Shown piece by piece: positions 3,005 through 57,167 of a stretch of 64,000 nt of DNA. The first letter of the stretch is position 1; each line of letters opens with the position of its first letter. The stretch is from Protoeuglena noctilucae (Eukaryota). The DNA lies in assembly GCA_958009085.1 (NCBI GenBank), contig OY253677.1, forward strand, positions 868,001-932,000, read 5' to 3'. The notes beneath the pieces were generated by a model that was given only the letters and a program-made list of their open reading frames with translations, searched no databases and was not told where the DNA came from. The position numbers were made by a program, and so were the translations under genes.

Positions 3005-6000
3005 CTACCCCACCACCCCCATGGCCGCCAGCTCCTCGTCGTCCCTCTGCTGCATCGCCGCCTGCGCCACAGCACGTACCGTAGTGCTCGGCCGATCCGG
3101 CTGCCACGACTGCACCGCACGCCACCCCTTGCCGCCCCCCACCGCCCCGCCCACTCCCCCCCCGGCCCCCATCTCAGCCGGCAGCTCCCCCTCCGCAGCC
3201 CCGCGCCACTCCGAGTCTTGGTGCACGCGGTCAATGGGGATGGACCGCCCCTTCAATGCAACGCGTGAGAAGGGGAGGTGACCTGTTTCCAAAGCCCTCA
3301 GCTCGCACTCGTCTCTTTCGAAGAAGTGCCCGCATGGTCCCACGCATAAGGGGGTGTCGGGGTCCATGGATCGGAAGTACTGGGATGGGACGCCCGGGGT
3401 GGGCCAGGTGCGGATGAGCACCTCGGAGCGGCGCAGGGCGAGCAGGACGTCGCTGCATGGGGGGGGGAGTGAGTGAGAGTGAGATAGGAGAGGAGAGGGG
3501 TGAGGGTGCGGGTGAGAGGTGTAAGGGTGTGAGGGCGAGGAGGACGTCGCTGGCGAGAGAGAGGGAAGGGGTGGGGGTGAGAGTGATAGCGGTAGTGATA
3601 GTGGTAGTGGTAGTGATAGTGGTAGTGATAGTGGTGATAGTGAGAGGTGTTAGCAGGCGCAATGAGCGGGGAAGGTTGTTAAACACACAACAGAACGGTT
3701 GAATGGCAGACGCAAACAGCAGCCGCGCTGCCCTCACGTTCATCACTCTCAACCCTCAACCTCCACCCTCACCTGCACCACTACCACCATCCCCTTACCC
3801 CTACCCTCACCCCTCACCACTACCCCCGCCCCCCAAAAACAACAAAAACAACAATCACCCCCCCCCCCACCCCACCAACCCCTCACCGGTCCACCACGAT
3901 CGGCGACCCGAGGTCCCTCTGCGACGTGAACGGGTCCAGCCGCCCCGCCACCACCTCCCGCGCATCGGCCGTCCCGTCATCCAGCCTTAGAGTGTCCGCA
4001 TCCTCCCCCCGCTCCTCCCGGCCCCCCATGTCGCCCCCCAGCGCCGCCACCCCCCCCCTCGCCCGCTCAAGCACGTTCCCCGGCGGCGGCTCCTCGTCCA
4101 GCAGCCGCAGCGCCTCTTCGTCCGACACACCCGGCGCGAGTTCGAACTCCACCAGCGGCAGGTGCTCGAACGTCAAATAGGACCGCACGAACGGCGCCGT
4201 GCAGTGGCTGCAGAAGTCCCCATGAGGGTTGAGCAGCGGGTTGACCGCCCCGCACCGATAGCAGATGGGGACCAATTCCTCAGGATCCGATAAAGGCTTG
4301 GACCGCACGTGCATGGCCAAGGCGTCCAGCCTCTCGCGCTCGGCGGGGGGCAGACGCAGCTCGTTGGTCTTATCCAGAGCGGTGCGCGCGAGCTTGTACG
4401 CCCCCAGCTCCTGCGCCGTGCGGGCCAGGCACCCCAGCACCCGCGACAGCCGCACGCCCCTCGGCGCCGGTTTGGACGCCCCAGCCGCCGCCAGTTTCAT
4501 GTACAGGTGCCGTGCAGCGTTGAAGAGGACGTCCGCGGTGACGGTGCGGAAGGGCTCGGTCTCGGCCGATGCCACCAGATTGTACAGGTAGTGCACCTCG
4601 CTCTCCCAGTAAAGGGCGCTCCACGCATCCAGCCCCCGCCTTGCTTCCGGCCCCGTCGCCACCGCCACCTCCTCCAGTCGCTCCAGACTGAGCGAGTAGA
4701 GGTAATAGGACGCGTCCCTGTGCCTCTCCTCGTCGATGGCGTTAGACGCGAGTGCGCGCAACACGGCGGCGGCCTCCCGTGGGTGTCCCGCTCTCTTGTA
4801 TGCCACGCGTGCCTCCTCGAATCGATCATTCGCCGAGAGCCAGCGGGCGTAGGGGAGGAGGACCTGGGGGGGTGTGTGGGGGGGGGGGGGGGTGGGGGTG
4901 AGTGGAGATGAGGGGAGGGGGGGGGGGTTGAGTGAAGATGAGAGGGGGAGGGGGAGTAGAGTGCGCATGTGAGAGGGGTAGCATGAGGAGTAATGACGCT
5001 ATGCGACGCCCACGCATCCCCCATTCCCCTCACCTCTTCCACCATCTCACAGAGTACCTCTCCATGACCTGGAATGCATCTCAACACATATTCACTCATC
5101 AAACTGACACACTCACCTCTACTCATAACACACACATACCCCTCACCTCTTCCTAAGCTCTAAGTACCTCTCCATCACCCACTCCCAATCCCTCACCTCT
5201 TCCTTTAACTCCGGGTACCTCTCCATGACCTGGAATGCGTCCCCCCACTGATGCATCTCCACGTGCACCAGTGCCACGCCCTTCATGTCCCCCAGCCGCA
5301 TCATGGTGTCGCGGGCGTACTGGAGCTCCTTGGCCCTGGGGGTGGGTGGGGAAAAGAGGGATATATCTGTTGATGTTTGATATACATTCGGAGTTATCAC
5401 ACACAGTGACTGGCACCCTTACAGCAGTGATCGCATCACCAGACACAACCCCCTACCTCGAACAGTGCTAAGTGCGCTCACCCCAGAGCCATCCCACAGT
5501 CTAACTACCAACGCATCCCCCTCAACCCAAACCCCCCTTCCCCAAACTTCACCTCGGGAAGTGCTTCGCACACTGCTCCAGCAGCTCCCCTTACCAACCC
5601 CACCAACCTCGATCTCACCTTACTCAGTGCTTAGCGCCCTTATTACACAACCCCAACAACCCATCTGAATTGCATTGCTGGCCGCCACCCCCCCACACAC
5701 CCCTACAACACCCCTCACCCCAAACAGTGCTTAGCGCACCCATCCCACAACACCAAACACATGACATCCCCCCCCCTCACCAACCCCCCCCCCCACCACC
5801 ATATCTCACCTCAAAAAGTGCTTGGCGCACTGCTCCAGCAGCTCCCCGTGTTTGTCCTTCTCCATCCCCTGCGATATCTTGAACAGGTCGCCCCACGCCC
5901 TCTGCCGCACCAGCAGCTGCACCGCCTTGTCGTGCTTGCCCGCCCTCACGTACATGTGTGCGGCGGCACCGAAGTCCCTCATCTGCTCCGACCAATCGGC

Positions 6001-9000
6001 CTGTTTCATGACTAGTTGCTGTGCCATGGGGTGCGCGTCCGCGTGTTTCTCCATAAATGCGTGGGCGTGGTCGAACTGTCGCAAGTCGCCAAACATCTGA
6101 AGGGCCATCTGCAGGGCGCCTGCTTCCTTGTAGGCCTCGGCGGCGCGGTCGAAGCGGCCCATGCTGGCTGGGGGGAAGAGGGTGGGGGGGTGGGGGTGTG
6201 CTTATACACGCACTAGTGAACTCACCACATCAGTCACCTCACCATCTCCCATGCATCATGCATCCGTTGTCATCTATATTATCCATATCCATACCCAAGC
6301 ACTCCGCCTTGACCACCATGGGCTTCTCCCCCTGCTTGTACATGCATCCATTCGTCGACTCACCATCTCATTTACTATATACAAATACTAAGCTCAAATA
6401 TCATGATATCATATACCCACTCACCTAAGCACTCCGCCTTGACCACCATGGGCTTCTCCCCCTGCTTGTACGCCCGCTCGGCCCTGGCCACCACCTCGAG
6501 CATCTTTGCGTCCCTCAGCCGCTGGTAGCACTTGCGGGCCAATTCCGTCTCCATTGCCAGTAAACAGCTCTCCGCCAGCCCCCGCCAGGCCAAAGGGGGC
6601 ATCCCCAGGCATGCCACCTCGTATGCCGCACCCCATTCCCCCGCCTCTGCGTGTTGCTGCACCAATGCGCTCAGTGGCAGGTCTAAGGCTTCCAAGCGAG
6701 CCTGGCGCAGGACGAAGGCGCGGGAGCCAAGGCAGCCGATGACTGGGGGGGAGAGGGGGAGGGGGGGGGGGTGGTGGTTGAGTCCGGGGGGGGGATTGGT
6801 GGGGGTGGAGTGCAGGGGTGACGAGTGGGGGTGGCAAGGGTGGTGAGTAAGGGTTGGAAAGGGTGGGATGGCAAGCATTGCGAGGTGCGCACCTATCAAA
6901 GGTAAAGCAACACACCTCCACCACCCTCACCCAATCCACAACCAACCAACCAAACATCCCCCCTCTACCCATCCCCCCCCTCGCTTCCTCACCAAATCAA
7001 CAACAAAGCACACCCCCTCTACTCATCCCCCTCCCCCCACCCCATCCCTCACCCATCCCCTGGTTGGCCACCCGCACGGGCGCCAGCCCCCCCGACCGCA
7101 CGCAGAGGTGCGTGCCCGTGGAGTAGCAAAGCATGCCGTCGCAGTCCGCGTTGAAGCAAGCGCTGCTGACCCCATTCTCCAGAAAGCTCGCGGCCCTCGT
7201 GCGGGGGTCATAGGTGGCCAGCTTCCCCTCGGCATCCACCACCGCCAGCCGCGTGCGATTGAGGGACCAGTCCAGGCACCGCACCGGCCCCCCGTGCTGC
7301 GCCAGATCCACGGGAAAGGGGTTGTTGAGGAAAACGTGCTGCACCGCGCCGGTCGCCAGTCCCAGTAGCAGCCCCTCCTGCCCCGGCTTGCCCCCGACCG
7401 CTTTGACGAACTTCACGGGGGCATCCATCACCCACTCCCGCTGCAGCTGGTCCGAGAAGGAGTAGGCCTGCAGCTTGGCGCCCTGGCACAGCACGATGTG
7501 CTGGGAGGTGACCAGCATGAGCTCGCAGTCCATGCTGCGGTCGATCTGGGGGGGTGAGGGGGGGGTGTGTTGCGATGGTGCTTGTGCAGTGGATACGTAC
7601 TAGGCACAGTGGGGGAATGAGGGGGGAGATGGATGGGAGTGTTAGTGCAGTGCAGTAAGGGCTTCCCACGTCATCCACTGACACACAACCACCCTCCTCA
7701 CCTGGGCGATCTTCTTCTGAGGTGCAAGCACCCCGCTTCAGCTACCATACATGCTATACTGTACCGATACTTAAAGCTAACTACAACGCTGTTATCCACC
7801 CCTCACATCCCCCACTCTCTCACCTGCGCGATTTTCTTCTGCGGCGCGGGCGCCCCCCCCTGCCCCCCGTCGCTCCCCAAATCGTACACCAACACCCGGT
7901 CGCCCAGCTGCACGGCCAATCGATCCCCAAACACCGACACCTTCTTGACGAAACTGCTGCACCGGATGGCCAGCCTGGCTCCCGTGGCCAAGTGCCGGAC
8001 CATGACTGTGGTCAGCCCCTCTCGGTAGGCGTAGCGCCAGCGGTGCAGGGAGTGGACCAGGCCGGCGTCCACCTCGTACACGCTCAGCTGCGGGCGATGG
8101 CAGTTGGCGAAGTAACTCATGGCCCCCACCTCCATCACTGCTGTCTGGCATACAATCTCCTGTATTATCTCATTTACATGCTCCTCTCCATTCCTCACCT
8201 GCCCCGACTTGGTCCCCACCGCCACCACTGCTGTCCATACAGTGACATGCTATCTTTTATAGTATGCCACATGCCTGTCTCTCATTCTCACCTGCCCCGA
8301 CTCGGTCCCCACCGCCACCAAACTCGGCTCCGTCTCTGGCCGCGGGGGCGACCACACCGCCGCCGCCCACACCCAAGCCGTGTCTGCCACCAAATCACTC
8401 AGCTTGCGGCCGTCCGGCGTCACCAGCGCCACTGCCTTGGTCGAGCAGGCGGTCACCAGCACCTCCCCGCCCCCCAGCGCGGCCAGGCTGTTGGGGCAGA
8501 AGGGCTGGGCGTGGTCGGCCTGCAGGGTGCCGTCGCGGGCGTACATGGAAATGGAGCGGGACCAGTCGCCGATGCTGCGGGTGGAAGGGGCGATAGGGTG
8601 TGTGGGAGGATATATGGAGATGGAGCGGGGCCAATCACGCTGTGGGTGTTAGGTCAGGGTGGTGTGGGGGTGCGGTGTCGATGGCGACAGAGGGAAGCAA
8701 AGGTACTGAAAGCGTGTAACAAGAGATGCAGTGAGGCTGGAAGACCTTGTGCACCCCTCCCCCTCCCCCCACCACCACTATCAAACCCCCCCCCCCCCCC
8801 CCCTCCCGCCCCCCCTTACCTCAGCCTTAGGTCCCCCGAGGGTCCATCCACGCTCCAGCAGAGCCCCCACACCGGCGCCTCCCTGACAATCCTCGACGTC
8901 TCCGCCCCCGCCTTGTCCCGCATCACCACGACCCCATCCAAATGCCCTGTTGCCAGAACCATGCCGTCCGGGCTCCACGCGGCAGACACCACCTTCGCGT

Positions 9001-9551
9001 GCACCTTGACCTTTTGTACCGAGCTCTGCTCCGGGTGCCAGAGGCCCAAGTCGTCGACCGCCCCCGACGCCAGCTGCTGCGTGATGGCGTTGTAAGCTAG
9101 GCACTGCACGGCGGTCGAGTGCGAGTACTTAAGCAGGCCCGTGGCCTCCTTGCTCCACACGATCACCACGCGATCCGCGCCGCCCGTCGCGAAGCGCTGC
9201 CCGTCGAAGGCGTAGGCGGTCGCGTAGACGGCGTCCTTGTGGCCCTTCATCGTGTGCATCAGGATGCCCGCGCGGACCTTGTACACGTGCACGCGCGAGC
9301 CGATGCCGGCCACGACCGTCTCCCCGTCCGGACTGCAAGGAGACGGCGGGAGAGGAGCCGGGGTGGGCGGCGGGCGGCGCCGGGAGCGCGCGTACAAGGC
9401 GCGCATGTTGGTTCGAACTAGCTGGCCTCGCGAAGGCGGTGCCGCGGGGCCGGGCGCGACCGCCCGCTCGCCTGAAGCTCATCGAGTAACACACGAGACG
9501 CACGCCATCCTTCTCCGGCGGCACGTCGGACCACAGGTGCGACGCCCGCAT
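3005..9551 (-). CDS. IFT122: Intraflagellar transport protein 122 (IFT-A, WD40 + TPR-like), about 10 exons
   Basis: Spliced translation MRASHLWSD...FSPDGETVVAGIGSRVHVY...GHKDAVYATAYAFDGQRFATGGADRVVIVW, RYAYREGLTTVMVRHL, LLPYARWLSANDRFEEAR, CYRCGAVNPLLN, FEHLPLVEFEL, CGHFFERDE. Splice phases are consistent throughout. Confidence 0.95.
3584..3642. repeat. Intronic (GTA/GTG/ATA)n microsatellite
   Basis: gtgatagcggtagtgatagtggtagtggtagtgatagtggtagtgatagtggtgatagt inside the last IFT122 intron. Confidence 0.8.
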
Positions 9552-9944
9552 CGTCCCACCAGCGCTGGGCCCCGCCGCGCGGCCCGCGGGAAGCTCCCGT
9601 CAATCAGCCGGCGGAGGGACCGTCGGTTCGCTCACGGCGATCGCGCAGCGAGAGATGCCCACAGACGCGGCCGGAGCGGCGTCGCATGGACCGCTCCTGC
9701 TCGCACGGGTCCCCGCGATCTGAGCAGGCACCGAGGGCTCCCTTGCGCGTCGCCACGGCGAGTGGATGTCAAATTGCGCGTGCAGAGCAACCCTGAGGGC
9801 CCCAAGTCGTCGTTTCCCCAGTCGAGTCAGGTGTCGGAAGGCCTGTTGCGGGGACGGGGGACATCCGGGCGACCCTGCCGCACCCGTGCGCATCGCCCCG
9901 CACTGGCATCGCCGCGAATCGCACCGCAGTGTCGAAAGGGAACC

Positions 9945-12069
9945 ATGGCGAGCACGACGGTGGTTTCGCAGGTGGGGATAAGGCGCATGCGGCCTTGCCG
10001 GGGCGTGGCGGGCTCCGATATGGCCGCCAGGACGCCTTGCGTATCTTCGAAAGTGCCACCGCCCATCGCGCCCTCTGGATTCTTTCCATCGACCCGGGCC
10101 CTCGCACCCGACGCTGTAGACCCCGCTCCCCGCGCGGGCTCGCGTGTATGCGGCCTCCCGCGCAGCCCACATCTTCATTTGGATATGCTTTGTCGCGTCG
10201 TCTCGTTTCAGATGCCTCCTTTGCCCCCACGACGACGGCCCCTGCCCTGACCCTCTTCGATATCTTGAGCCACCATAACCTGCTTTTTCCCGGCGTCTGC
10301 CGCGCCTGACGCTCGCCTGAGCATCGCACCCGGCACAATTGCTCCACCCGGCCCCGTCGGACACCGCAGGCCGGCCCCTCGCTGCGCCCGGCGACCTCCC
10401 GGCCCCGCTGCCCCTCTCCGCAGGCCGTGCGGGCGCGCGACGTCCGCGCGAGCGCCGTGTCGCAGCAGACCCGGGCGCCGAGCGCCGTGACGAGCGACGC
10501 CAAGCTCCCGCTGCTCCTGCGGGCCCTCAAGGTGGGTCGGAAACTCGCCCGTGCCCTTCGCTCCCCCGCGCTGCCTCGTCACGCACCCCGCCCGCCCTGC
10601 TGCCCGCCGCCCCGCCACCCCGCCGCCCCATCCTCCTCGACATCCCGCCACGCTACTACCGCAGGGTGACAGGGTGGAGCGGCCCCCCCGTGTGGATGAT
10701 GCGCCAGGCGGGCCGTTACCAGGTGGTGTACCAGGAGCTGTGCAAGAAACACCCGACGTTCCGCGAGCGTTCCGAGAACGCGGACCTCGCCGTGGAGATC
10801 TCCCTGCAGCCCTACCGCGCCTTCCGCCCCGACGGCGTCATCCTGTTCTCTGACATCCTAACTCCGCTCCCCGCGATGAACATCGCGTTCGACCTCCCGC
10901 CCGGCAAGGGCCCCGTCATCCTGAACCCGATCCGCACGGCTGCCCAGGTGCGCGAGGTGACGACGGGCGACGACTTCACCTTCCGCGAGACAAACCACTA
11001 CGTGGGCGAGGCCCTTACCCGGCTGCGGCAGGAGGTGGGGGACGAGGCGACGGTGCTGGGCTTTGCGGGGTGTCCCTACACTTTGGCGACCTATATCATC
11101 GAGGGCGGGTCGTCCAAGAACTTCACACACATCAAGCGGATGATGCTGGCCGAGCCCGCCACGCTCCACGCCCTGCTGGACAAGCTGGCGACCAACGTGG
11201 CGGACTACGTGCGGTACCAGGCCGACGCGGGGGCGCAGGTGGTGCAAATCTTCGACAGCTGGGCCGCGCACCTGATGCCCCAGGACTTTGACGAGTTCTG
11301 CGCTCCGTACAACAAGGTGAGGGGTGCTGGGTTGGTGTGGTGGCGGCATATGCGGTGGGGGACCATGTCGTGGGGGTGGGTGAGGGTGCTGGGAGCCCTG
11401 GAAGAGAGTGGCAGAGTTTTGATTCGTTGTTTCTTCATCAGTATCAATATCCCTTACTTTGATTGGGTTGCACTTGACACACCACCTCACCCCTCACCCC
11501 TCACCCACCCCCTCTCCCCAGCGCATCATCGACGAGGTCCGCCGCACGCACCCCGACCTCCCCATCATCCTCTACATCTCCGGCAGCGGCGGCCTGATCG
11601 AGCGCATGGCCCAGTGCGGCCCGGACGTGCTGTCGATCGACCACTCGGTGGACCTGGGGGACGCCATCCGGCGTGGGGGCAGCCGGTTCGCCTACCAGGG
11701 GAACCTCGACCCGGCCATCCTGTTCGCGGAGAAGGTGAGGGAGTATCAGGGGTGGGGTTGGTGACAGCGGTTTGGAATGCAAATGGGGCTGTGCGGTGTG
11801 TTAGCTGAGGAAGAGTGGGGATGGTGACAAGGCCATCTCATCACACCCATCTCTCTGTGTCTCTCAACTCACCAAACCAATCTCCCATTCACCCTCTTCC
11901 CCCCCCCCCTTCCCAGGACACGATCCGCGCCCGCACCCACGCCATTGCGCGCCAGGCCAGGTCGGCGGGCGTGCGCCATGTGATGAACCTGGGCCACGGG
12001 GTGCTGCCCACGACCCCCGAGGACCACGTGGGGGCGTTCTTCGAGGCGGCCAAGGAGTTCCGGTACTGA
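9945..12069 (+). CDS. UROD/hemE: Uroporphyrinogen decarboxylase, plastid-targeted (apparent 1-nt insertion at 10683-10689)
   Basis: [68 protein letters not shown]. The Ser/Arg/Ala-rich N-terminus resembles a transit peptide. Confidence 0.95.
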
Positions 12070-12772
12070 AGTGGGTAAAGGGGGACTGTCACGACATGGA
12101 TGTGGGTGGTACAGCGGTGCTGGGTGTGGGTATCGACAGGGGGGTTGGCACTGAAAAGGTGCTGAGACATGGAGGGGAGCGAAGGGGTGATGGAATGGAT
12201 ACTGATACGAAGGAGTGGGGGGTTGCTGGGATGGTGTCACTCACGCGGACGGGGTGCGGGGGAGGGATGGAATTGACGAAGCACACATGGGGTGGCATGG
12301 CAGGTGCACAGGGGTCGCTCTCAATGCTGCTTGCTCGCGAGTGCCGGTGGTGCTGAAAGACGATGCGATCGGTAGTGCGCATTCGGGTTCACCTTTGCAA
12401 GTGGGTGGGGTGGGTGTCACACGAGGGGGAGCGTGAGCATGTGCGTCATGCGGGATGTGGTTTTACTAGGCGTAGTTGTGCCCTACGATTCTGCTCTATT
12501 CCTAGCGGATTCTGTATATGGGGTCAGACGGGGGGAGATGAAGATGGGTGGCGGTGTGCTGCTGGGCCGCCCCTCTGCTGCAGTGTTGGTGTGGAGGGTG
12601 ATGCGGGTGCAGGGTGCGCGTGGTTGCACTCGAGAGGACCGCGCAGTTGAAGGGAAGAGGAGACGAGAGAGCAATAGCATAGCTAGATCAAGCGTATCCA
12701 GACGAGCACAAGACAAGCGCACGCGCACACGGAAACCTGAGTCCGCTTGTATCTTCCATCAACAGCACCGCT

Positions 12773-15700
12773 TCATGCATTCCGCATCGCCCCCACCCGC
12801 GGCCCCTCCCCTGCAGCCGCAGCCTCCGCTCCACCCCCCGCATCCCCCTCATCCCCACTCTCGCTGCCCCCGCTTCCCCCCGCATCGCTGCTAGAGGCAT
12901 CACTGGCAGCCGCAGTAACACCCTCATGGGTAGTTCCACCCACAGTGATATCACCAGCGCTTCCCTTGCCCCTGCTGCCACCACGCCCCACCTCACTGCC
13001 AACGTCGCTGCCACCATCGCTGTACCCATCGCTGCCACCATCGCTGGAGCTCTCCTCATCCCAGGCATCCGAAGATTCCGAATCGTCAACCCTATAGCTA
13101 ACAACAACCCGTGAGGGCCTGCCTCTCATTGACACCCCACCCTTCCCCGTCCCACGCATCCCTGCACTCCCATCAGCCCTCTCCCCACCCGCACCGCTGC
13201 TCGTGGCGACAGCCCCGTATCTGCCATCGCCAACTCGCCCACTCTTGTCCCCACCAGCCCCACTCCTGCTGCGCTCCGCACCCCTCCCACTCTCATCACC
13301 CACACCCGTACCCTCTCTCTCCACTGACCGAGCCCCCACCCCTCCCATCTGACCCCCCCCATCCCTTTCTGCTAATCCTGTCCCCACCAGTCCCATCTGA
13401 GGGTACAGCGTCTGGCCCTGGGACTCTGCCGTGGTCAGCGCACGCAGCCAGTCCTTGACGGGCGCCAGAATCTGCAGGAAACGCGAAGAGGGGGGGGGGG
13501 GTTGTATGAAGAAAAAGCGAGGAGCAAGTGTGTGTAGGAAAGACTCACTGCCGCAGCGCTGTGTTGCGGTGACACGTGCTCGCAACAGTGCATGGTATGC
13601 TATTCCGTGTTACCGTCACTCCCCATCCGGACATTATGCAGTTTCAACTCTCACCTTATCCGCCAGCGTCCCCCTGTCCACGTCTTCCATGCATGTGTCA
13701 CTGTTACCCCTCACTCACCTTATCCGCCAGTGTCCCCTTATCGACGTCATCCGGTGCCGAGGGTGGGAAGTCCATCCTCAGGTCTCGCTCGGCCGAGTAC
13801 GCACGGAGCTCCATGGCACGGAGCTCGTTGCCTGCGATCATGGCATGGGATGGGAAGGGTGAGGGAATGGGAATGGTGGAATGTAGCATGGTTGCCAGAT
13901 GGGGTGCATATCATACACCCACACACACGCACACACACCACCCCCCACATTCAAACACTCACCCATCCTCTCCTCCATCTCCGCCCACGTCAGCCACACT
14001 GTCTGGTTCCCCGGGTCGCACTTCACTCCGCATTTGAACAGCTCCCTCGCCACCGCCCCGTTGCCCTCTTTCTCCTCCATCACACCCCACGCGTGGAACA
14101 CCCGCGCCGCTTTGGGGGACTGCGGGTCGCACCAGAGGGCCTGGCGGAACAGGTCCCTGCGATGAGCACAGCGAGAGTGATGGTATGCTGAAATGTGAGA
14201 AGCAGGTCTTGCTGATTAAGTATGACCAATGGCCATCTGTACTCGCCTGGCCCTGTCTGCGTTCCCCGCCTGGTGTTCCAGGATGGCCCATGCCTGCCAC
14301 GCCGCCATGTGGCGCGGCTGCACGCGGATGGACTTGGCAAAATACGATCGGGCACTCTTCAGGCGACCATCCTCGGCCTCCATCACGCCGAGAGCCTGGG
14401 GTGGGGGTGGGGGGTGGTGCGGGTGTGGGTGTGGGTAGCAGTGGGGGTGTGGGTGTGGGTGTGGGTAGCAGTGTGGGTGTGGGTAGCAGTGTGGGTGTGG
14501 GTGCGGTTGAGCTGCACCGTCACTGTCGTTGCAAGTGTGACTGCGACTGTGTTGACATCTATGCATCTCATCTCGCCTGCAGTAGGACGTGGTCGGTGCG
14601 GTTGAGCTGCACCCCCGTCTCGAGTAGCTTCCGGGCCGCCTCCCTCGACCCCCGCTCCTTCTCCACTTTGGCCCACGCAGAGTAGACGTGGCGGGCGCGG
14701 GGGTTGGCCTCGATGGCGCGGCGGAAGAGGCGCCTGGGGTGGGTGGGGGGAGGGGGAGAAGTTATAGGAGGTGAGAAAGGTGAGTGGCACGGCAAGAGGG
14801 GTTAGCGTGACCCACCCATGTCCCTCCCTCACCTGGCCAACACCATGTCCCCTCGCCTCATCCCCCACCAATCACCCACCCTCTCCACCACCCCCACCAC
14901 CCTCACCTGGCCAGCACCACGTCCCCCCCCTCGGCCTCCAGCTGCGCCCAGTCCTTCCACAGCGCCACGCTCTTCGCTCCCAGCGGCGTCTCCGTGCCCT
15001 CCCGGAACCACTGCCGCGCCTCCGCGGGGCGCCCCAACCGCACGCACAGCATGGCGAGGGAGTGGTACAGGTGCGAGTTGCCGTCCGGGTCCCTCAGCTC
15101 CCGCACCCCGCGCACGAAGAGGTCCCGCGCACGCAGCAGCTCCCCATGCCGCATCTCCAGCATCCCCCAGCCGTGCCAGGCGGGGGCGTGCGAGGGGTCC
15201 GCGGCCGTCGCTGCGTCGAAGAGCTGACGGGCGCGGGAGACGTTGCCGCGGCGGGACTCCAGCGTCGCCCACGCCTGGGGGGGGTGGTCAGGGACGTGGT
15301 GAATGAATTGTGGAGTGCTCGTTTTGACACGTGAATATCCAATCACTGTGATCATTTCTCTTTTCGTGCCCCTGTGCAAGCGGTCGTGCATGCTCGCTCG
15401 CCCGTGAACGCTCCCTTGCCTGCCAGATGAATGCGCTCGTGCCTCCCAGCGCCTGGCATCCCACGTCGTAGAGCCTCGCGGCCTCCTCCTCCCGCCCGTC
15501 CTCCACTAGCAGCTTCCCCAGGCACACATACCCACGGGCGTCCTTGGGGTCCATCGCGATCACGCGGCGGAAGTTGGACTCGGCGCTGCGATAAGCGGAA
15601 CGGTACAGCGATATGATGTATTATGGCAGCGCGGGGACGTCGCGAGGTGCGCGGCACGCGTGCCATCAGCCGGCCTCTGCTGTGCGGGGCGTGGACGGAG

Positions 15701-19398: not shown

Positions 19399-21921
19399 TC
19401 ATTTCACGCTGACCAGCTCGACCTCAAAGACGAGCGTGGCGTTGGGGGGGATCGAACCCTTGACCCCCTTGGGCCCGTAGGCCATCTGGGGCGGGATGGT
19501 CAGCCGACGACGGTCCCCCACCCGCATCCCCACAATGCCCCGGTCCCATCCCTTGATTACCTCCCCCACCCCCAATCGGAACTTGAAGCTCTTGCTCTGG
19601 TCAAACACGCGCCCGTTGGCCGCCAGCTTGCCGACGTACTTCACCACCACCTGCTTGCCTGCGGGGAGAGAGAGAAGGGGGGAGGTGTTACTGGTCGGGG
19701 AGATATCAGAGGGAGGGGTGACCTGTTGACAGCACACCATCAGCGATGATATGCACCTGTAACACATCGTCAGTGACCCCATGACTAAAAATACACCGTC
19801 ACGACGCCCCCCCTTTGTCACTCGCCTGCCTTGGCCACGGCCCCCCCCGCCTTCCCCACCCCCAGCTGCTCAATCTTGAATCCATTTTCGTACTCCTTCA
19901 CCATCCCAGCCTTGGTCAGGTCCTGCTGCTGAGCGTCACTTGAGCCCTGGGGGGGGGCACGCGAGGTGATCTACTGTGTTACTATTACAATATCACATCA
20001 TGTCGTATCTGCTAGGAGCGTTTATGCAAACGTGACATCGCTATGGACTGTAGATGTCCATGCAATGATGGCGCAGTGACCACGCCACCCATGCGCCCCC
20101 CCCCCCCCGCAATGTCCCTCACCTGCCCCCCCTCCTTGTCCCCCTTGTGGTCATGACCATGGCTGTGACCGTGACCGTGATCACAGTGACTGTGATCGTG
20201 ACCATGACCGTGACCGTGGTCGTGGCTGTGACCGTGGGCACCCTTGCTGTCCTTGCCGTCCGCCTGCGATTGCCAAAGCACGGCACGAAGCGTGTTGTCC
20301 ATGGCACAGCGAGCCATTAGTAAGATTTATGCAACAAATTCTTTTGCCTGTCAAGGAGAGGGAGGACAAACAAGTCTTTACATCAGTTCCCACCACCACC
20401 GCGACTGGACCGTCACCTCGGCCTTCCTCACTTCTCGCCCCCCCACATGACACAACCACCACCCCAACCGTCACCTTGGCCTTCTTCCCCCCCGGCGTGG
20501 CCCCCTGCCCCCCCTCCTCTGCGCGGCGCTTCTTGTCCTGACCACCCGATGCCTTGCCATCACCCTTTGCACCCCCGTTGCCATCCCCCTTCGCATTACC
20601 CTTCGCACCCCCCTTGCCATCCCCCTTGCTCCCCTTCCCCCCCTTCGGCTTCGCATCCTCCTCCTCCTCCTCATCGTCATCATCATCATCCATGTCCTCA
20701 TCATCCTCATCCTCATCATCATCCGAGTCGTCCTCCCCCGCCCCGCCCTTGGCGCCACCGCCCGGCTGCACCGGCTTGCCATCCGCATCGATCTCCTGAA
20801 GAACACAGGCAGACACAGGCAATTGTCAACCATTGCAATGCTATCGAGTTGTGAATTCAAACCCTCTTGATGTGCTTGCACCACGCCACCCCCCACATCA
20901 TGGCACATGCCCTACATCTGCCCCAGTCCCCCCCTTTATGAAACCCCCCAACCACCCCATACTACCCCATCCCTCCCCCAAACACCCCCCCTCACCTCGA
21001 TCTTGACCCGCGAGGCCGGGATGAGCCTTCGCTCCTCCCCGTCCTCCTCGTCCTCATCGCTGTCGGACCCAAGGCCGTACATCTCCGCCAACTCCTCCTC
21101 ATCCATCATCTCTGGGTCCAAATAGTCATCCTCCTCATCGTCATCGTCGTCAACGTCCTCCTCGTCGTACTCGGGGACGTAGTAACCCGACACGTGCACC
21201 TGCGATGGGATGGGCGACGACCGGTGGTGGTGTGGGAGGTGGCTGGAGGTGCGTGGATGGTTGCAAGCGGTGAGCAATGGTGGAGAGAAGGGTGTATACG
21301 GTATACATGCAGCTTATCAGTCGACTGGGACAATGAGGGACAGGACATGTGGGACAGCAGGCATGGATACGGGGGGTACCATAGCAGCCGTGTCCGGAAC
21401 ATCGCGACGGCCGCTGGCCACACACACAGAGCATCCCGGGCGCCCCGGGCGCGGACTAAGGACACGTGACGATGCCAGGGACATGCATGACAACTGTTAG
21501 TATATACGCCAAACACCCTGGCGCACCTCCCCGCCCGTGGCGGTGAACTCGGCGTAGGTGTCAAAGACCAGGTCCAGGGTCTGGCTCTCGGCCTTCCCGT
21601 GCTCCAGCACGGCGATGATGATCTCGTCTCCGAGCTCCGGCTGCTCGTCCTCCTCCTCGGGGTCGCCGCCGGACACACGGACTCGCAGCGTGACGCGGCC
21701 TTTGGTGCCGTCCCCCAGCGCCACCTGCGCGCGCGTGGAAGTTGATGATGCAACCGCTTGCTTCCTGGCAATACACGAGGGTGTCATCGCGCCATCGCGG
21801 CGCAGGAGAGGCGCGGAAGCGGCGCCCCCGGCACCTGGGAGAGGTGCAGCCGCATGGGCTCGGGTGGAGGCACGTACGGGACCGCCTTCCCCGGGCGAAC
21901 GACCGCCCCGAAGAAGCTCAT
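19399..21921 (-). CDS. Nucleolar FKBP (nucleoplasmin-like N-domain, acidic tracts, His-rich exon, C-terminal FKBP PPIase), FKBP53/Fpr3-4 type
   Basis: MSFFGAVVRPGK...LHLSQ, LDLVFDTYAEF, VHVSGY, D/E tracts, VVKYVGKL...FDQSKSFKFRLGVGEVIKGWDRGIVGMRVGDRRRLTIPPQMAYG...IPPNATLVFEVEL. Confidence 0.92.
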
Positions 21922-22298: not shown

Positions 22299-22716
22299 AT
22301 GGGGCTCGCCACCTCCTTCTACCGCGCGGTCATGCGCCGTAACTACATCTACGTCCCCGTCGTTCTCGCGGGAGCGTAAGCGCTCGACATGGTGAGCCTG
22401 CGCGCACATGGGCCGCGCTGGGGACCGTGGGGTCGCCTGCCCCGGCTGTGTTGGTGGCCTCCTGCAGCCGCGAGGACCCGAGGACCCAATCGCCGACGCA
22501 TCGGGGCCTACCGTGTGCGTCGCCATCTGGGGCCCCTCCGCCCCGCGGCTCGCGGCCTGGCCCTCGCGCGAGGCTTGACGCGGACATTTTGCGTTGCTGC
22601 AGGGGTTCGAGGCCGCCTTGAACGGCGTCTGGGAGATGAACAACCGGGGCAAGCTCTACGAGCACAACGTGGCCAGGGGCGTGTTCGGGGGGGCCAAGGA
22701 CGAGGACGAGGAGTGA
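22299..22716 (+). CDS. QCR9: Cytochrome bc1 complex subunit 9, 2 coding exons (22299-22391, 22603-22716), with in-frame TAA at 22377-22379
   Basis: MGLATSFYRAVMRRNYIYVPVVLAGA*ALDM|GFEAALNGVWEMNNRGKLYEH matches the QCR9/UQCR10 pattern RRN..Y....AGA....W..NN.GK. The ORF track misses this gene. Confidence 0.85.
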
Positions 22717-36313: not shown

Positions 36314-39300
36314 TCATCTCCTCGCCACGGCCATGGAGCTCAGCGCCTCCGCCAGCTCCACCCCCAGCCCCACCTCCGTCTCCACTGCCGCAAACGCCCG
36401 ACGCCCGGACGACCGCCTAGATGCGCGCCGGCCCCCGCTCCCCTGCGCCGCCGCCACCTCCGCCAGCCGCGAGATCGTCACCAGGCACGCCGCCCGGTCC
36501 AGCCGGGCCGCGGGGCTCTCCGCCATCGCCGGCCCAGATGTGGCCCACAGCGCCGCCCCCAGCTGCACCCGCCGCCATGCATCGCTAACGGACCACTGAC
36601 CCTGACCACTGCGCCCTGACTCGACACCCTCCCACGCGGTCATAGTCTCCATCCCACTCCCCGCATCACCCCCGCCGCGCACGCACTGCCTCAGCACCGC
36701 CCCTGCCACCACGTCCCCCGCCTCTGCCGCCACTGTCCGCTCGCTCCCCACTGCACTCCTCGGCTCCCCCTCCCCACCGCGACTGCCGGAGACGCTAAGG
36801 CAGCTATCCGCGTCGCCTGTCCCTGCCCTGGCCTCCTCCCCCAGATCGCCTGTCGAGTGACCGGGCCCCTCCGCACCCAGGCGCAGATGGGGCCGTTGCT
36901 TGGAGGGGACCAGGTGAGAGGGGTCCAGGGGCCACGAGGCAGGGGGCACGTCGGGCCGGGGGGCGCGGAGGACGTCGCACGCAGAGAGGGCCTCCAGGGC
37001 GGCAGAGAGGGACAAGAGGGAGTGGGGGTCATTGTCGTGGGGGTCGTGGAGTGGACGGCGCACTGCAGGGAAAAGAGAAGGAAGGAAGGGTTAGGTTCAT
37101 GCAACAGCACGGCTTGAGTATACAAAGGTGGGATTGTGTCCGCACAGCCAGGCAAATTGTTCATGCCCCACCTGCCACGTCTGCTGCCACTCCCCCATCC
37201 ACAGCGCCCTTTGCTGTGAACATCTCATCGTCCATACCCTCCATGCCGCGTGCAAGCAGTCTCTCCAGCACCCCCGACACCGTCACAGGGCCCCACGCAT
37301 CCTCGACCCCTGCCCCCGGCTCGCTTGCCATGCCCACCGCCACTGCTGTGGCTACCTCGTTCTCAGCAGCGCCACCGCTGTTAAGCACACCCAGCCCAGG
37401 GTCACCGTACCCCTCCGCCAGCCCCACTGTCCCCACACCACGCCCTCCTTCCCCGCCACCATCAGCAAGCGCCTGTGCATCAACGGGGTCGTTGCCTGGG
37501 GACGTGCGTGGTCGCTTGGCAGGGCTGGGTGTGCCGTCGCTGATGGGGTCCTCTGAAGATGCCTCGTCGCCATCTTCCTTGCCCACTCCCTCTTGCAGAT
37601 GGTGTGAGGAGTGGGTCTCCGTCACGGGCAGCGCATCGCGCACGGCAGCGGACCTGCAGAGGGACAGGGAAAGGAAGTGGGTGGGTGCTGACGCATAAAA
37701 TGACTAGTATCAACTGGTGCAACTGGCGCTGTGGAAAGGCCCAAGGCAATGCAACAACCAACACCCCCTCACCTCTTGGCGGCTCTCATGAGGACACCTA
37801 ACACGCCACGGCTCCTCCGCTCCTCTGCCCGCGCCTCCGCCCATCGCACCGCCGCCCCCTCCAGCAGCCGCAATGCCTCTGCCTCCACCGCCGCCAGCAG
37901 ACCCCCTCTCACCCGCACCCGTCCCCATGCATCATGCTCCGCATCACCCTCTGCCGCAAACGCAGCTTGCCCCACCCTCGCCCGCACCGGCGTCGTCCCT
38001 GCACCCTCTGCCACTCCACCCATGCCCTCATCCCTCATCTCCCACCCCACCCCACTGCATCGAATGCCGCATCAATGACCGACCCCACCGACCCATGACT
38101 CTGCCCTGTAGTGACGGCACCCCTGTTAGCCCCCGCCAGCCACAGCTGCGCCGACAGCAGCGCCCCCCGCACATCCCCCCCCGCCCCCCTTGCCACCGCC
38201 TGCACCTGACCCAGGCTCACAGGGGCCCCCATCGCCACGCACGCACACGCCACCACCTCCGCCACCTCCCCGTCCGTCGGGCGACCGAACCGCACCTCAG
38301 GCATTCCCGCTGCCGCCCCCAGGCACGCAGGCCTGGCTGTCCGGGCCGTCAGCACCACCGGGCGCTTCGTGCTCCCCACCAACTCTGCCAGTGCCCCCGC
38401 AAACCCCCTCTCATCCTCCCCCAGTGTGTCCACCTCCTCCAACACCAGCAGAGTCCGGTCCGCCGCACCCCCCGCACCACCCGCAGCAGCCCCTGCTGCA
38501 CCCACCCCACCCCACGCCCCCAACACCATCCCTGCCCCCGCTCCACCCCCCCGCTTCCCCACGCCCCGCGACTGCGACGCCTCCCCCACCGCGCGCAGCA
38601 GCCCCGCGCCCGTGCGCTCCGTCCCCGCATTCACCTCCAGGACGCGGAACCCCGCCGCTTTCGCGCACGCCCCGACTGACGCCGACTTGCCCACGCCCCC
38701 AGGTCCCCACACCAGCACCGCCGCGCACCCCGCCCCCATCGCCGCCTCCCCCGTCCCCTCCGCGCCCCACTCATCGTCGCTGGTGCTGTCGCCCTTGCCA
38801 CGCCCACGCCCCCGCCGCTTGCGCCCCCGCCCGCCCCCGCTCCTCTCCGGCACCCCCGCGCACCCCTGCCCGTCGATCCGCGTCCCCCCACTCCCGCAGC
38901 CATGCACACAGCGACTCTGCCGCCTCCTCATTCCCACAAACATCCGAGGGGTCCTCGGGGGCCACCGCGTCCGCCCACAGCAACGACCGATGTACGTGTC
39001 CAGAAGTGGGGGCAGTGGTGGCGTCGCTGGGGTGGCTGGGTGCGGCAGAGGGCGCGAGGTCCGGTCGGGTCGGGGAGGTGGCAGGCAGGGGCTGGCTGTC
39101 GTCATCTGTGTCGACGGGGATGGGGGCGAGGGCAGAGGGGTGGTCGCGGTGTGGCGGCTGCCACGGCTGCGCCTGGGCCGCCTCCGCCTCCCGTCTCTCC
39201 GCCAGCGCCCGCATCCGCTCCGCCCTCCTTGCCAGGCGCGCCTGCACCTCGGCTGCTGTGGATCGGGGCCCATCTGGGAGATGAGGGAGCGAGGGATGGC

Positions 39301-51865: not shown

Positions 51866-54800
51866 ATGGAGAATGGGTTTGGGGGACGCGGCCGCGGTGG
51901 GGCGGCGCTGGATGGCGGCGACGGCTCCTACCTAGCATTTAATGATGACAGGGACGGCAGGCGACCGTGCGACGAGCTCAATTCCCCCGCGCATCAGCTG
52001 ATCCACGACCCCCGGATCCCACCAGCGCCTGGGCTCGCCGGCTCCCCTCCAAGCATCGCCGCCTGAATACTGCGCTGCATGTGCACCTACCATGCGGCGC
52101 TCGGCCCCGCGAGCGAGAGCCCTCGCCATTCGCAGCGACGGCCACGACCACTTCGCGATGGACGGGCACCTGGGCGACTTCCGCGACGATTTCGACGAAG
52201 GGGGCGTGGCGTTCGACGAGACGGCAGACGCTCTCGCGGACCGCATGGAGGGCGCGCTCCTGGACGGCCGCGCGGACGACGGCGCGCGGTCGCGTACCCC
52301 CGCCGACCGCGAGGAGGCAGAGCCGGACGAGCCGCTGCCCGAGTGGGCGTGCGCCTACTGCGGCGTGAGCAACCCTGCGTGCGTCGTGCGTTGCCTCAAG
52401 ACCGGCAAGTGGTTCTGCAACGGCTGGCAGCATGGGTGCTCGGCGTCCTGCGCCGTCTTCCACCTCGTCCGCAGCAAGGTGCGCGCGGGGCCTGGGTATG
52501 CCGTGGGAGGTCTTATCCGATCGCTGCATGCGCATTAAGCCCTCGCACCTGATGAGATGGGCGATGCACACGGGGTGTGATGGACGCCGCAACAGTCGAT
52601 GACTGGTAGCGTTGGTTCGTTGGCGTCTCTGCATCGACGCCCTCGTCACCCTCGCTGCCCTCTTAGAGCAAGGAGGTCTGCTTGCACCGGGACAGTCCCC
52701 TGGGTGAGACCATCCTCGAGTGCTACGCCTCCGGGGCTCGCAACGTCTTCACGCTGGGGTTCGTGCCCCTCCAGGTGCGCGGTGGCAGTGGGTGGGATGT
52801 TACTGAGTCAGCATGGCATGTGACTATCATGCATATGAGTTCTATGCTCGGCTGCCTCGTCTGGTCCCCGCAGTCCCAAAGCACGGTGGTCATCCTGTCG
52901 CGCAACTGCCAGGCGGGGGCGCCGGAGCTCAGGTGTGTGAATACGACGATGGCTCTCTGCCCCAGCTCTGCCACACGCACAGCCGCTGTAAGCACCCGTC
53001 CACTAACCCTTGCCTGCTGCTGTGCGAAATGGTGGAGCAGGTGTGGGTGAGGGACTCAGCACCTACCCCATACCCTCCTTGACAGGAACCTGGATTTGGA
53101 CCTGACGAGCTGGCAGCCGCTGATCGAGGACCGTCAGTTCGTGCCGTGGCTGGTGCGCGTGCCCCAGGGGAGGGACCTGGAGCGCACGCGGCCCATCACC
53201 CAGGCGCAGATGACGGCGCTGGAGGAGCTATGGATGCGCAACCCGACCGCCACGGTCGAGGACATCGGGTGACGAGAGGGGGGGTGTGGGGATGGTGGGA
53301 GTGGGAGGGGGGTGTGGGGAGTGGTGGGAGCCGAGAGGGTTGCGCTGAGCGCATGCTCACCTGCGCACTTGCTCTATCGGTACTTTACTCGTTAACTCGC
53401 CTCCTCTGCTCCTGTGTCTCAGGGAGAAAGTGGAGAGCGAGGGTGCGAGCCCCGTGTGCATCCGCTACGAGGACGCCTACCATTACCAGAACATCTACGG
53501 GCCCCTGCTGAAGCTCGAGGCGGACTACGACAAGACACTGGCTGAGGCGCAGAGGTGAGAAGGGGGGGGAGGGGGCAGTGTTGTTGCATGGGTCGCTCAC
53601 GTGACCTGAGACATGAAATCCCACACACTTCGCATGCCCTATCGCAGCCAGGCACATGTGCACAGGATGACACGCACGCTGTGCGTGCCCCTCACATCCC
53701 CCGCTTGCTCACCTCCCTTCCCAGGAAGGAGGGCATCGAGATCAGCTGGGAGGCACTGGGCTCCCGCCTCATCGCCATCTTCTGCTTCCCCATCGAGGAC
53801 AGCGACGTGAAGCTGGGCGTGGGGGACGAGCTGCTCCTGAAGCACCCCAGCCGCCCCGACTGGGTGGGGAAGGCCAAGGTGGCGTCCATGGACGCCTTTG
53901 GCACCGTCGAAGTCATCCTGCCGGGGTCCAGGTGAGAAGAGGGGGGTGGAGATAGTGTCGTGTATCGGTGCAAGATGGCCATGCTGGATGGGAGGGACCA
54001 AGGGAGGGGTGGGCTGGCGGAGCTGGTGGGGTGTTGCTCCCGCCCTTCTCTGGCCTGGCTCTCATTGCATTGTTCCCCGTCTCTGCACCACCCAGGGAGG
54101 TGCCCTCTCACCTGTCGTCCAACTTCACGGTGGAGCGCACGTGGAACGACACCAGCTTCAAGCGCATGCACACGGCTCTGACGCAATTCGCGGTCAACGA
54201 GTCGTCGGGTGAGGCCGTGGGAGCAGTGAGGCATTCAGGCAATCTCAGTGCTCACACCAAACATTGAGTTCTCTGCTGGCCACGCCCCGTGGGGCCGTGG
54301 GAACTCAGAGCTGTGTACGACATGTGTACACCCACCCCTGCTTGCCTCAGCCCCCACCGCACCCCCCATCCCCATCTCCCCCCACTCAGTCGCCGGCTAC
54401 CTCTACCTCCGCATCCTGGGCCACGATGCACCCGAGAAGCCCCTGCCCGTGCGCACCCCGGACAACCCCACGGCCCCGGGCCTCCCCAAACTCAACCCGT
54501 CTCAGCAGGACGCCGTCAAGTCGGTCCTGGCGCAGCCACTGGCGCTCATCCAAGGGAAGGGGGGCGCCAGTGCTTGCTTTTAACTGCCTCTGCCAACCCC
54601 ATGGGTGGTCTGTCCCTGCACTCGTGCCTGCTGCCACCACCCTCTGCCAATCCCTGCCATGCTTGCCCCCGCCCCCCCAGGCCCCCCCGGCACAGGCAAG
54701 ACGGTCACCTCGGCCACCATCGTCTACCACATCGCCAAGCAGAACGCGGGGCAGCAGGCGAGCGAAGGATGCATTGTTAACACACTTGCACTTTGCTTTG

Positions 54801-57167
54801 GTCATGACATGCCCCCCCCTCACACCCCTCACCTTCGCACCCCACCTGCGCCACCAGCCCGTAGTACTCAGTATCTCACCCCACCATCCCTCCGTTACCC
54901 CCAGGTCCTCGTGGCTGCCCCCTCCAACGTGGCCGTGGATCACCTGGCAGAGAAGATCGCTGCCACCGGTCTGCGCGTGGTGCGGCTGTGTGCCAGGGCC
55001 AGGGAGGACACGGAGGTGGTGTCGGCGAGCGTAGTGCCGCTCACGCTGCACTACCAGGTGAGAAAGTGTTGTGTGTGTGGTAGCTGAATGCCACTCACGA
55101 TGCACTACCAGGTGAGGGAGTCTGTGGTAGCGTGGCGGCGGTACCGAGCGAGAGGGTGCCAACGAGAGCTAAGGCACTCAAGGGACCTTGTTTAAGCACG
55201 GCAGTTTAGCTCACTCACTTGCTGTAAGGTACCTTCCCCTTCTCTGCTCCCCAGGTCCGCAATGCTGACGTCCCTGAGGCCTTCCGCCTGCGTGCGTTGA
55301 TGAAGCTGAAGGACGAGATCGGCGTGCTGCACGAGAAGGACTCGCGGGAGATGGCCAAGCTGCGCAACATGCTGGAGCGGGAGGCCCTGAGCGCGGCCGA
55401 GGTGGTGTGCTGCACGTGCTCGGGGGCGGGGGACCCCCGCATGGTGGGGCGCAAGTTCCGGCACGTCCTGATCGACGAGGCCACGCAGGCCTGCGAGCCC
55501 GAGTGCCTCATCCCGATCGTCAAGGGCGCGCGGCAGGTGGTGCTGGTGGGCGACCACTGCCAGCTGGGGCCCGTCGTCATGTGCAAGGCCGCCGCCAAGG
55601 CCGGGCTCAACCTCTCCCTCTACGAGAGGCTCATCCTCATGGGCATCCGGTGAGCACAGCACAATTAGGTATCGTAATATCCTTCTAGGAGAGGGCCATT
55701 CTCAGCGTATGACAGGCAGTGAGCGGGTCGCTCTATTGCACATGTGCACGTAACGAAGCTGACTTTCCCTCTGCCGCTGGTAGCATGCGCGCTGTATGCA
55801 CGTGCCCCTCTCCCTCAGCAACCCCATGCGCCTCATCCCCTCCCTCTCTCCCTCCCCAGCCCCGTGCGTCTCCAGGTGCAGTACCGCATGCACCCCTGCC
55901 TGTCCCTCTTCCCCTCCAACACCTACTACGAGGGCACGCTGCAGAACGGAGTCTCCGAGGCACACCGCACGCGGCCCGAGGTTGACTTCCCGTGGCCGGG
56001 TGAGAGACGCCTTGGCCACAAGCGACAGGCACACGATGAGCGTGGGAATGGCGCGACATGTTTAAGCACGCTTGCATGCACTGGATCGTTCCATCGAGGC
56101 GCGCAGAGCGCAGCGCAGTTGCCACGTCGCATGCAAAAACAGCTGCCCCCCCACCCCACCCCACTCCCCCAGGCCCGACCACGCCCATGATGTTCCTGGT
56201 GTCGCTGGGGGCGGAGGAGCTGAGCGGCAGCAGCACGTCGTACCTGAACCGCGCCGAGGCGCAGGCGGTGGAGAAGGTGGTGACGCGGTTCCTGATGAAC
56301 GGGGTGGACCCGGCCCAGATCGGCGTCATCACGCCCTACGACGGGCAGCGGGCGCACGTGGAGGCGGTCATGCAGCGGTCGGGGCCCCTGCGCCAGGAGC
56401 TGTACAAGGCCGTGGAGGTGGCGTCCGTGGATGCCTTCCAGGGCCGGGAGAAGGACTACGTGGTGCTGTCGTGCGTGCGATCCAACGACCGGCAGGGGAT
56501 CGGGTTCCTCAGGGAGCCGCGGCGGCTCAACGTGGCACTCACGCGCGCGCGGTACGGGCTGGTGGTCGTGGGGAACCCCCGGGTGCTGGCCAAGGTGAGG
56601 GGGGAGTGGGCGGGAGTGTCTGTTGCATCCCCATCTGCCTGTCTTTGTGGTCGCCTGACCATACAAGGTGTTCTCGCCACATGCATCTCTGGCCTGTTCG
56701 TTGCAATTTCTCCCGCTCTCCCCCCCCCTCAGCACCCGCTGTGGAACTCGCTCCTCACGCACATGTCCTCCCTGGGGTGCATCGTGGAGGGCACGCTCGC
56801 CCACCTCCGCCCCAGCACCGTGGCCTTCCCCATCCAGCGCCGGCCCTTCCAGTACGTCCCCGAGGCCCACCTCGCGCTCCTCTCCGCCCACACGGCCCAC
56901 GACGCGCCACCCCGCCCGGACTACGAGGACCCGGATGCCGCCCGCGCCCCCAACGGCGCCCAACCGCAGCCGCTCTTCAGCGTCCCCGCCTTCAACCCCT
57001 TCTCCGGCCTCTCCACCCCCGCCCGCCCCGGATCCCAGCAGTCCCAGCAGGGCCTGGCCCCGCCCTTCCTGGACCCCTTCGCCGCGTACCTCGGCTCTGC
57101 ACCCCGCAGCCAGGGCGCCTGGAGCGACTACTCCCTGGCATCGCAGCCCAGCGTGGCAGGGCGATGA
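51866..57167 (+). CDS. UPF1: Regulator of nonsense transcripts 1 (SF1 RNA helicase)
   Basis: CAYCG...[105 protein letters not shown]. Confidence 0.96.

Follow-up and report, generated by a model that had tools for sequence, protein, structure and literature searches.

Some introns of a green alga harbour short copies of the adjoining coding sequence, here called echoes, far in excess of chance. The echo in intron 4 of IFT122 is real, and so is the lean of exon/echo differences towards third codon positions; the null against which that lean had been judged was wrong, and most of the silent bias is the ordinary effect of setting a gene beside a dead copy of itself. The echoes are best read as dead local duplicates: coding copies beyond chance, with disabling changes and no open frame.

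Results

The window, by which we mean the whole 64-kb stretch analysed, is nuclear DNA of 61-72% GC. Gene models came from a small gene finder followed by manual curation, giving 98 introns (196 intron ends); some first exons are not included, and frame problems led us to drop QCR9 and split ATAD5. Homology searches back the identities of IFT122 and UROD, while HCF107, UPF1, FKBP, QCR9 and ATAD5 are names presumed from the protein sequences; for the HCF107-like protein, homology backs only a TPR/HAT-type protein. The best named matches of the UROD protein are core chlorophytes (70-73% identity), and it sits on a long branch, which is all that our quick tree shows. The best relatives reach 49% identity for IFT122, 68% for HCF107 and 72-74% for UROD (99% identical UROD copies set aside), and the search for a close relative as outgroup found none, a metagenome scan yielding one match at 31%.

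Several models show irregularities of their own. A run of 7 C at 10682-10688 shifts the UROD frame; a database protein 99% identical to UROD reads through this run in frame, and the shift is likely a homopolymer assembly error. ATAD5 (about 37950-38900) is also out of frame. The QCR9-like gene has an in-frame TAA mid-gene (22376-22378), for which sequence error, a broken gene or recoding may be responsible; the 18 finished models end in TGA (16) or TAG (2), never TAA. An intron within the P-loop motif of UPF1 (54555-54680) requires a GG donor, which may be non-canonical or an assembly error, and 16 of 99 donors are GC.

We searched for echoes with a score blind to codon position (+1/-1.5, codons ignored) and a threshold of 13 or more; self-BLAST misses near-diagonal copies. 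This gave 13 segments in 11 of the 98 introns, with 29 differences over 344 sites (Table 1). The threshold was reached at 11 of 196 intron ends, whereas non-cognate introns predict 0.27; at 12 or 11, weak segments enter that are partly chance. Each of the 13 direct copies has its end no more than 18 nt from a splice site; near splice sites there are no inverted copies, and 26.6 kb scanned for copies of deeper exon DNA (at 60-300 nt) held none. Seven of the nine IFT122 introns bear echoes, against four of the 89 others. Echo introns are longer, CpG-poor and rich in G/C runs; G4-like runs occur in 8 of 11 against 27 of 87 others (p 0.015, confounded with length), and GC3 beside them is not lower (0.90 versus 0.87). 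Two candidate signals were rejected: an 11-mer upstream of two echoes, since introns share 65 such words against 47 +/- 10 when shuffled, and a pre-existing internal GTGAG as priming site, which is not enriched in ordinary introns (17 versus 14). In intron 7 of IFT122 (5336-5809), at least four echo-like pieces sit inside a colinear unit some 260 nt long, which suggests repeated events at one boundary.

Table 1. Echoes in the window and the parts of IFT122 intron 4, numbered from the first letter of the window.
Feature	Position	Strand	Remarks
3' echo (copy of next exon's start), IFT122 intron 2	8611..8636	-	2 silent, 2 replacement
5' echo, IFT122 intron 3	8199..8227	-	28/29 identical, one E>K; then a decayed second copy
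IFT122 exon 4	7824..8087	-	gene model, homology; last 33 nt (7824-7856) are the echo template
IFT122 intron 4, 278 nt, GT..AG, echo-bearing	7546..7823	-	gene model
Spacer, true donor to echo, 89 nt, G-rich start	7735..7823	-	not alignable with intron behind echo
Echo in intron 4, 33 nt	7702..7734	-	7 differences: 5 silent, 2 replacement; 1 of 6 CpGs left
Copied donor GTGAG	7697..7701	-	if used, 122 nt would stay in the mRNA, out of frame and with a stop
Remainder behind echo, 156 nt, shaped like a complete ordinary intron	7546..7701	-
IFT122 exon 5	7053..7545	-	gene model
5' echo, IFT122 intron 6	6297..6341	-	45/45 identical
Long 5' echo, IFT122 intron 7	5553..5590	-	4 silent, 1 replacement up to its donor
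Older 5' echo, IFT122 intron 7	5721..5739	-
5' echo, IFT122 intron 8	5054..5080	-	conserved core, scrambled towards donor
Second 5' echo, IFT122 intron 8	5164..5179	-	1-nt deletion further on
3' echo with copied AG, IFT122 intron 9	3532..3549	-
5' echo, HCF107-like intron 7	13655..13688	-	3 silent, D>E, K>R
5' echo, HCF107-like intron 3	14833..14852	-
Echo without donor, HCF107-like intron 4	14497..14518	-	runs into CCCACA repeat
5' echo, UPF1 intron 10	55089..55111	+
Short 5' echo, FKBP intron 4	20417..20429	-	two replacement changes; below threshold, outside the 29-mismatch count

For the echo in IFT122 intron 4, the first-pass annotation had reported four differences from the exon end, all silent, over the stretch encoding APQKKIAQ (exon end 7824-7847 against echo 7702-7725, minus strand). 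These four are present, but they are not the whole copy: scored without regard to codons it runs to 33 nt and adds GCG>GTG and CCC>CTT, which makes five of seven silent rather than four of four. Under a null in which both copies mutate, at least five of seven would be silent by chance with a probability of 0.12-0.23, and four of four with 0.03-0.06, trimming not yet allowed for. The annotation's own worry that spotting by eye favours conserved copies was justified, as the stretch it cited ends just where the amino acids cease to match. Assembly did not create the echo: an environmental DNA contig spanning 6797-8772 also carries it; the contig has two other letters, both outside the echo, and seven gaps whose places the record does not show. 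The APQKKIAQ stretch does not align with the closest IFT122 homologue.

Other copies cited in the annotation fared unevenly. One of two CTG>CTC changes in a DVLLAL copy lies inside the segment at 3532-3549, the other at its edge in a CT-rich stretch. The TTA>TTG change assigned to the intron-6 echo may equally be read as loss of an 8-nt donor. The likeness of the HCF107 echo to its exon is borne out in that D>E and K>R are conservative and accompany three silent changes, but two of its five changes do replace amino acids. Indels at 5028-5180 were confirmed.

The 29 differences comprise 19 at third, 6 at first and 4 at second codon positions, and 18 are silent. This third-position excess is strong against a uniform null (p 3.9e-4) or against a null in which only the echo changes (p 1e-5 to 0.005), and only marginal once both copies are allowed to mutate. 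The uniform null is unsuitable because the exon also mutates after duplication, keeping mostly silent changes. Thus the premise that a neutral intron copy should favour no codon position is wrong for an exon/echo pair, in which the exon gains silent changes only; the proposed check for uniform mismatches does reject uniformity in the window, but it was mis-specified. A silent lean is also expected because CpG loss and GC-to-AT decay fall on GC-rich third positions (89% G/C).

When mutation is allowed in both copies, a silent share of 0.38-0.54 is expected, according to the mutation spectrum (p 0.007-0.23, highest under stronger bias), and one of 0.42 (p 0.021) with a spectrum derived from 28 roughly polarised SNPs, 5 of 33 rows having been dropped because they lie in repeats. 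Simulation gave 11.5-12.3 silent differences against the observed 18 of 29 (p 0.008-0.017), and conditioning on mutation class raised the expectation to 13.2 (p 0.05). The excess vanishes when the threshold is lowered to 12 (24 of 48 silent) or 11 (24 of 50), with p 0.06-0.79 at omega 0. Taken by themselves, transitions, 12 silent and 7 not, agree with the null (p 0.22), and the residual excess lies in G<->C changes (5 silent versus 1 not; p 0.04, post hoc). We conclude that the surplus of about five silent changes, which comes from three genes, is suggestive and not established.

Other features of the differences point to change on both sides. In the 18 silent cases the echo codon is the commoner one in 6, the rarer in 10 and similar in 2; both copies have changed, because echo codons are commoner in some cases and rarer in others. 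The idea that echoes keep an older exon state holds in an ordinary sense: exon codons ending in A/T differ from the echo in 5 of 8 cases, the echo having G/C in 4 of them, and codons ending in G/C do so in 13 of 103 (p 0.003). Differences fall at 12 of 54 CpG sites against 17 of 290 other sites (p 4e-4), and CpG counts drop from exon to echo from 25 to 15 overall and from 6 to 1 in IFT122 intron 4. The pN/pS of echo pairs is 0.18-0.20, and pS is not significantly uneven across echoes (p 0.10-0.16). In IFT122 as a whole, CpG observed/expected is 0.39 in introns versus 0.92 in exons. Across genes, intron values range from 0.19-0.39 (UROD, IFT122) to about 1.1, exons staying near 0.8-1.1; regional differences in methylation or mutation may account for this range.

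Similarity breaks off right after the copied donor. Over 11 echoes, ungapped identity is 0.84-0.89 in the last 10 exon nucleotides (inflated, as alignments were anchored on good matches), 0.95 in the donor and 0.35-0.53 beyond it, where the control is 0.28-0.34. The intron behind the last echo is of usual length (median 143 nt versus 139.5 in ordinary introns). Spacer and remainder are weakly related (pooled p 0.037): they are colinear in introns 3 and 7, where the spacer has diverged much further than the exon part has; in intron 6 they are shuffled. The duplication units of 50-257 nt are direct, closely linked copies, as in repair-mediated duplication. A test for filler was mixed, and four sequencing runs revealed no echo-less allele.

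The suggestion that echoes are sometimes translated found no support. Each of 11 echo donors, if used, would retain sequence that shifts the frame or holds a stop. In one RNA contig, the sole one listed across an echo-bearing intron, the segments 7053-7425, 6425-6742 and 5809-6167 follow each other with no gap in contig coordinates; its junction from 6425 to 6167 shows use of the true donor, with the perfect intron-6 echo therefore skipped. Another RNA contig ends as expected for the true donor of IFT122 intron 3. RNA contigs drop rare forms, so that rare use of an echo, that of intron 4 included, could escape them, and run X9, which covers introns, was not counted as splicing evidence. For intron 4 there was nothing among the RNA records listed, and depth arithmetic gave a weak hint of one contig made up of about 7407-7545 and 7824-7854. 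An internal CAG in the intron-4 echo is a possible acceptor for an in-frame 15-nt micro-exon, and was picked by the gene finder. Echoes carry radical changes (P>L, P>S, E>K) at residues common to distant homologues, and they do not combine the own acceptor, frame and mRNA use that characterise mutually exclusive or cassette exons. Nor do the junctions and the RNA contig show a duplicated unit removed as a new GT..AG intron, as intron gain would require. Copies of spliced junctions were absent from the 98 introns (best 15/20).

The four runs contain 28 SNPs in 12.1 kb (3300-15400). Among exon SNPs 14 of 21 are non-silent, near the neutral share, four of them in a last exon whose model is uncertain; introns, with 5 SNPs in 4594 bp, are no richer in SNPs than exons, with 21 in 6306 bp, two of the four runs being RNA with poor intron cover. 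This pattern suggests a very young or bottlenecked population. In these nearly monomorphic runs no SNPs are listed in exon ends that match echoes, and no present-day allele carrying an echo variant was seen, the result that bears on the annotation's suggestion that exon and echo may exchange sequence by gene conversion. One decayed echo is still changing, as SNP 8123 falls in it at a first codon position. Eight public UROD variants differ at 4 of 372 positions, a read-through intron included; the variants (10690-11805) show all four combinations of two variable residues, which may reflect recombination or mixed consensus assemblies.

Discussion

We favour, at somewhat better than an even chance, an origin of echoes as break-repair duplications that spanned a splice site, had no function and then diverged as gene and dead copy do. 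In plants, filler DNA and patch-mediated repair leave a short direct duplication at a break. For the echoes, we infer that an intron broke close to its G-rich start or its C-rich end, and that repair copied 15-47 nt of exon end with the donor, the two copies being set apart by local DNA in rearranged form; of these copies, the downstream one and its intron would be the original, and the two would have been identical at first. The upstream donor would have stayed in use, as RNA indicates for some introns, and the event would be harmless and the second copy dead in the intron because of this. Both copies then changed, as the statistics above show: the echo anywhere, mainly by CpG loss and GC-to-AT transitions, and the exon keeping silent changes only. 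Such two-sided change would yield 42-53% silent differences without selection on the echo, and picking and trimming by eye would account for the rest of the silent impression. Against this origin stand the residual silent excess and a pN/pS below the 0.32 of rice pseudogenes (PMC2724416). The end of similarity right at the copied donor and the small silent excess remain unexplained, and the colinear, more diverged spacers of introns 3 and 7 suggest a diverged allele rather than scrambled filler.

A more doubtful but still serious alternative is that each echo and the intron behind it were acquired as a unit, exon end plus intron, from an allele or homeologue that had diverged strongly. An intron would have broken in an ancestor that was hybrid or highly heterozygous, and the other chromosome, whose exons matched and whose introns had drifted, would have served as repair template; copying would have crossed that chromosome's entire intron and reached the exon end, and the product been joined to the untrimmed start of the old intron, or later conversion against an echo-less allele would have given the same result. 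The exon ends would differ silently because both were working DNA until then. Capture would fit the fall in identity past the donor, the ordinary intron length behind the last echo, the weak relation of spacer to remainder, the residual silent and G<->C excess, the not significantly uneven pS and the clustering in IFT122. However, neither the 28 SNPs of the four runs nor the UROD variants reveal a diverged haplotype, the echo of HCF107 intron 4 lacks a donor, and the transitions need no extra explanation; any diverged partner allele would be ancient or unsampled. If capture were true, about 1 in 10 introns would be a two-haplotype chimera, a marine alga that is now almost monomorphic would preserve traces of a vanished phase of hybridity or extreme diversity, and allele capture would be a means by which introns grow and turn over. 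The literature searched, whose accessible part excludes most subscription journals, yielded no description of intron growth by capture of a diverged allele.

Plain tandem duplication of exon end and intron start, the intron part decaying several times faster, is improbable. Colinear units in introns 3 and 7 speak for it, and in simulations with one clock the echoes of intron 4 and FKBP and the long one of intron 7 fit (p 0.19-0.35). Yet of eight echoes four reject one clock (p <=0.017) and one is borderline; the failures are clearest in introns 3 and 6, where near-perfect or perfect exon copies adjoin poorly alignable intron parts, and intron 6 was reproduced in 0 of 209 and 0 of 197 matched simulations. 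Present SNP density, moreover, is not higher in introns, which two of the runs cover poorly.

Splicing in and translation of echoes under amino-acid selection is very hard to credit, the possible micro-exon and the conservative HCF107 changes notwithstanding, given the unusable donors, the skipped intron-6 echo and the radical changes and indels; equally implausible is insertion or refreshment from mRNA or cDNA, which would explain the sharp edge at the donor, but echoes retain the intronic donor (up to 8 nt in FKBP) and spliced-junction copies are absent.

The echoes also have a practical value. Present in 11% of introns, they would serve as neutral references within the genome, with which silent substitutions can be polarised and CpG decay gauged; this would spare an outgroup in a lineage for which the sets searched gave no close relative.

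Most of the silent bias is what a comparison of a gene with its dead sibling is known to produce, and it cautions against a uniform null. In the accessible part of the rice study, pseudogene-sibling pairs have a Ka/Ks of 0.32, partly as the sibling keeps gaining silent changes (PMC2724416). Echo pairs share a ratio well below 1, but they are copies of 16-45 nt in the parent's own intron, with a somewhat lower ratio from a small sample. Repair-mediated duplication as set out in the available text of Pace et al. (2009; PMC2671141), where 4 of 824 donors were partial exon/intron and some copies inverted, likewise involves closely linked copies, some with splice sites, and duplicated exons free of coding constraint; by contrast, echoes are all direct and adjoin splice sites, and 11% of introns have them. 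In two further sources, the sole relevant item in the portions at hand is a cited title on one-sided invasion (PMC1484586; PMC4888836). Small tandem duplications arise at staggered breaks, according to the part consulted of PMC8355091; echoes too are short direct duplications at a putative break, but their copies are separated by 30-220 nt of weakly related spacer. Finally, intron gain by tandem genomic duplication, as described in the accessible portion of PMC3443670, resembles the echoes in duplicating within a gene a sequence that holds splice signals, whereas here an existing intron grows, no new intron arises and no matching GT/AG pair frames the unit.
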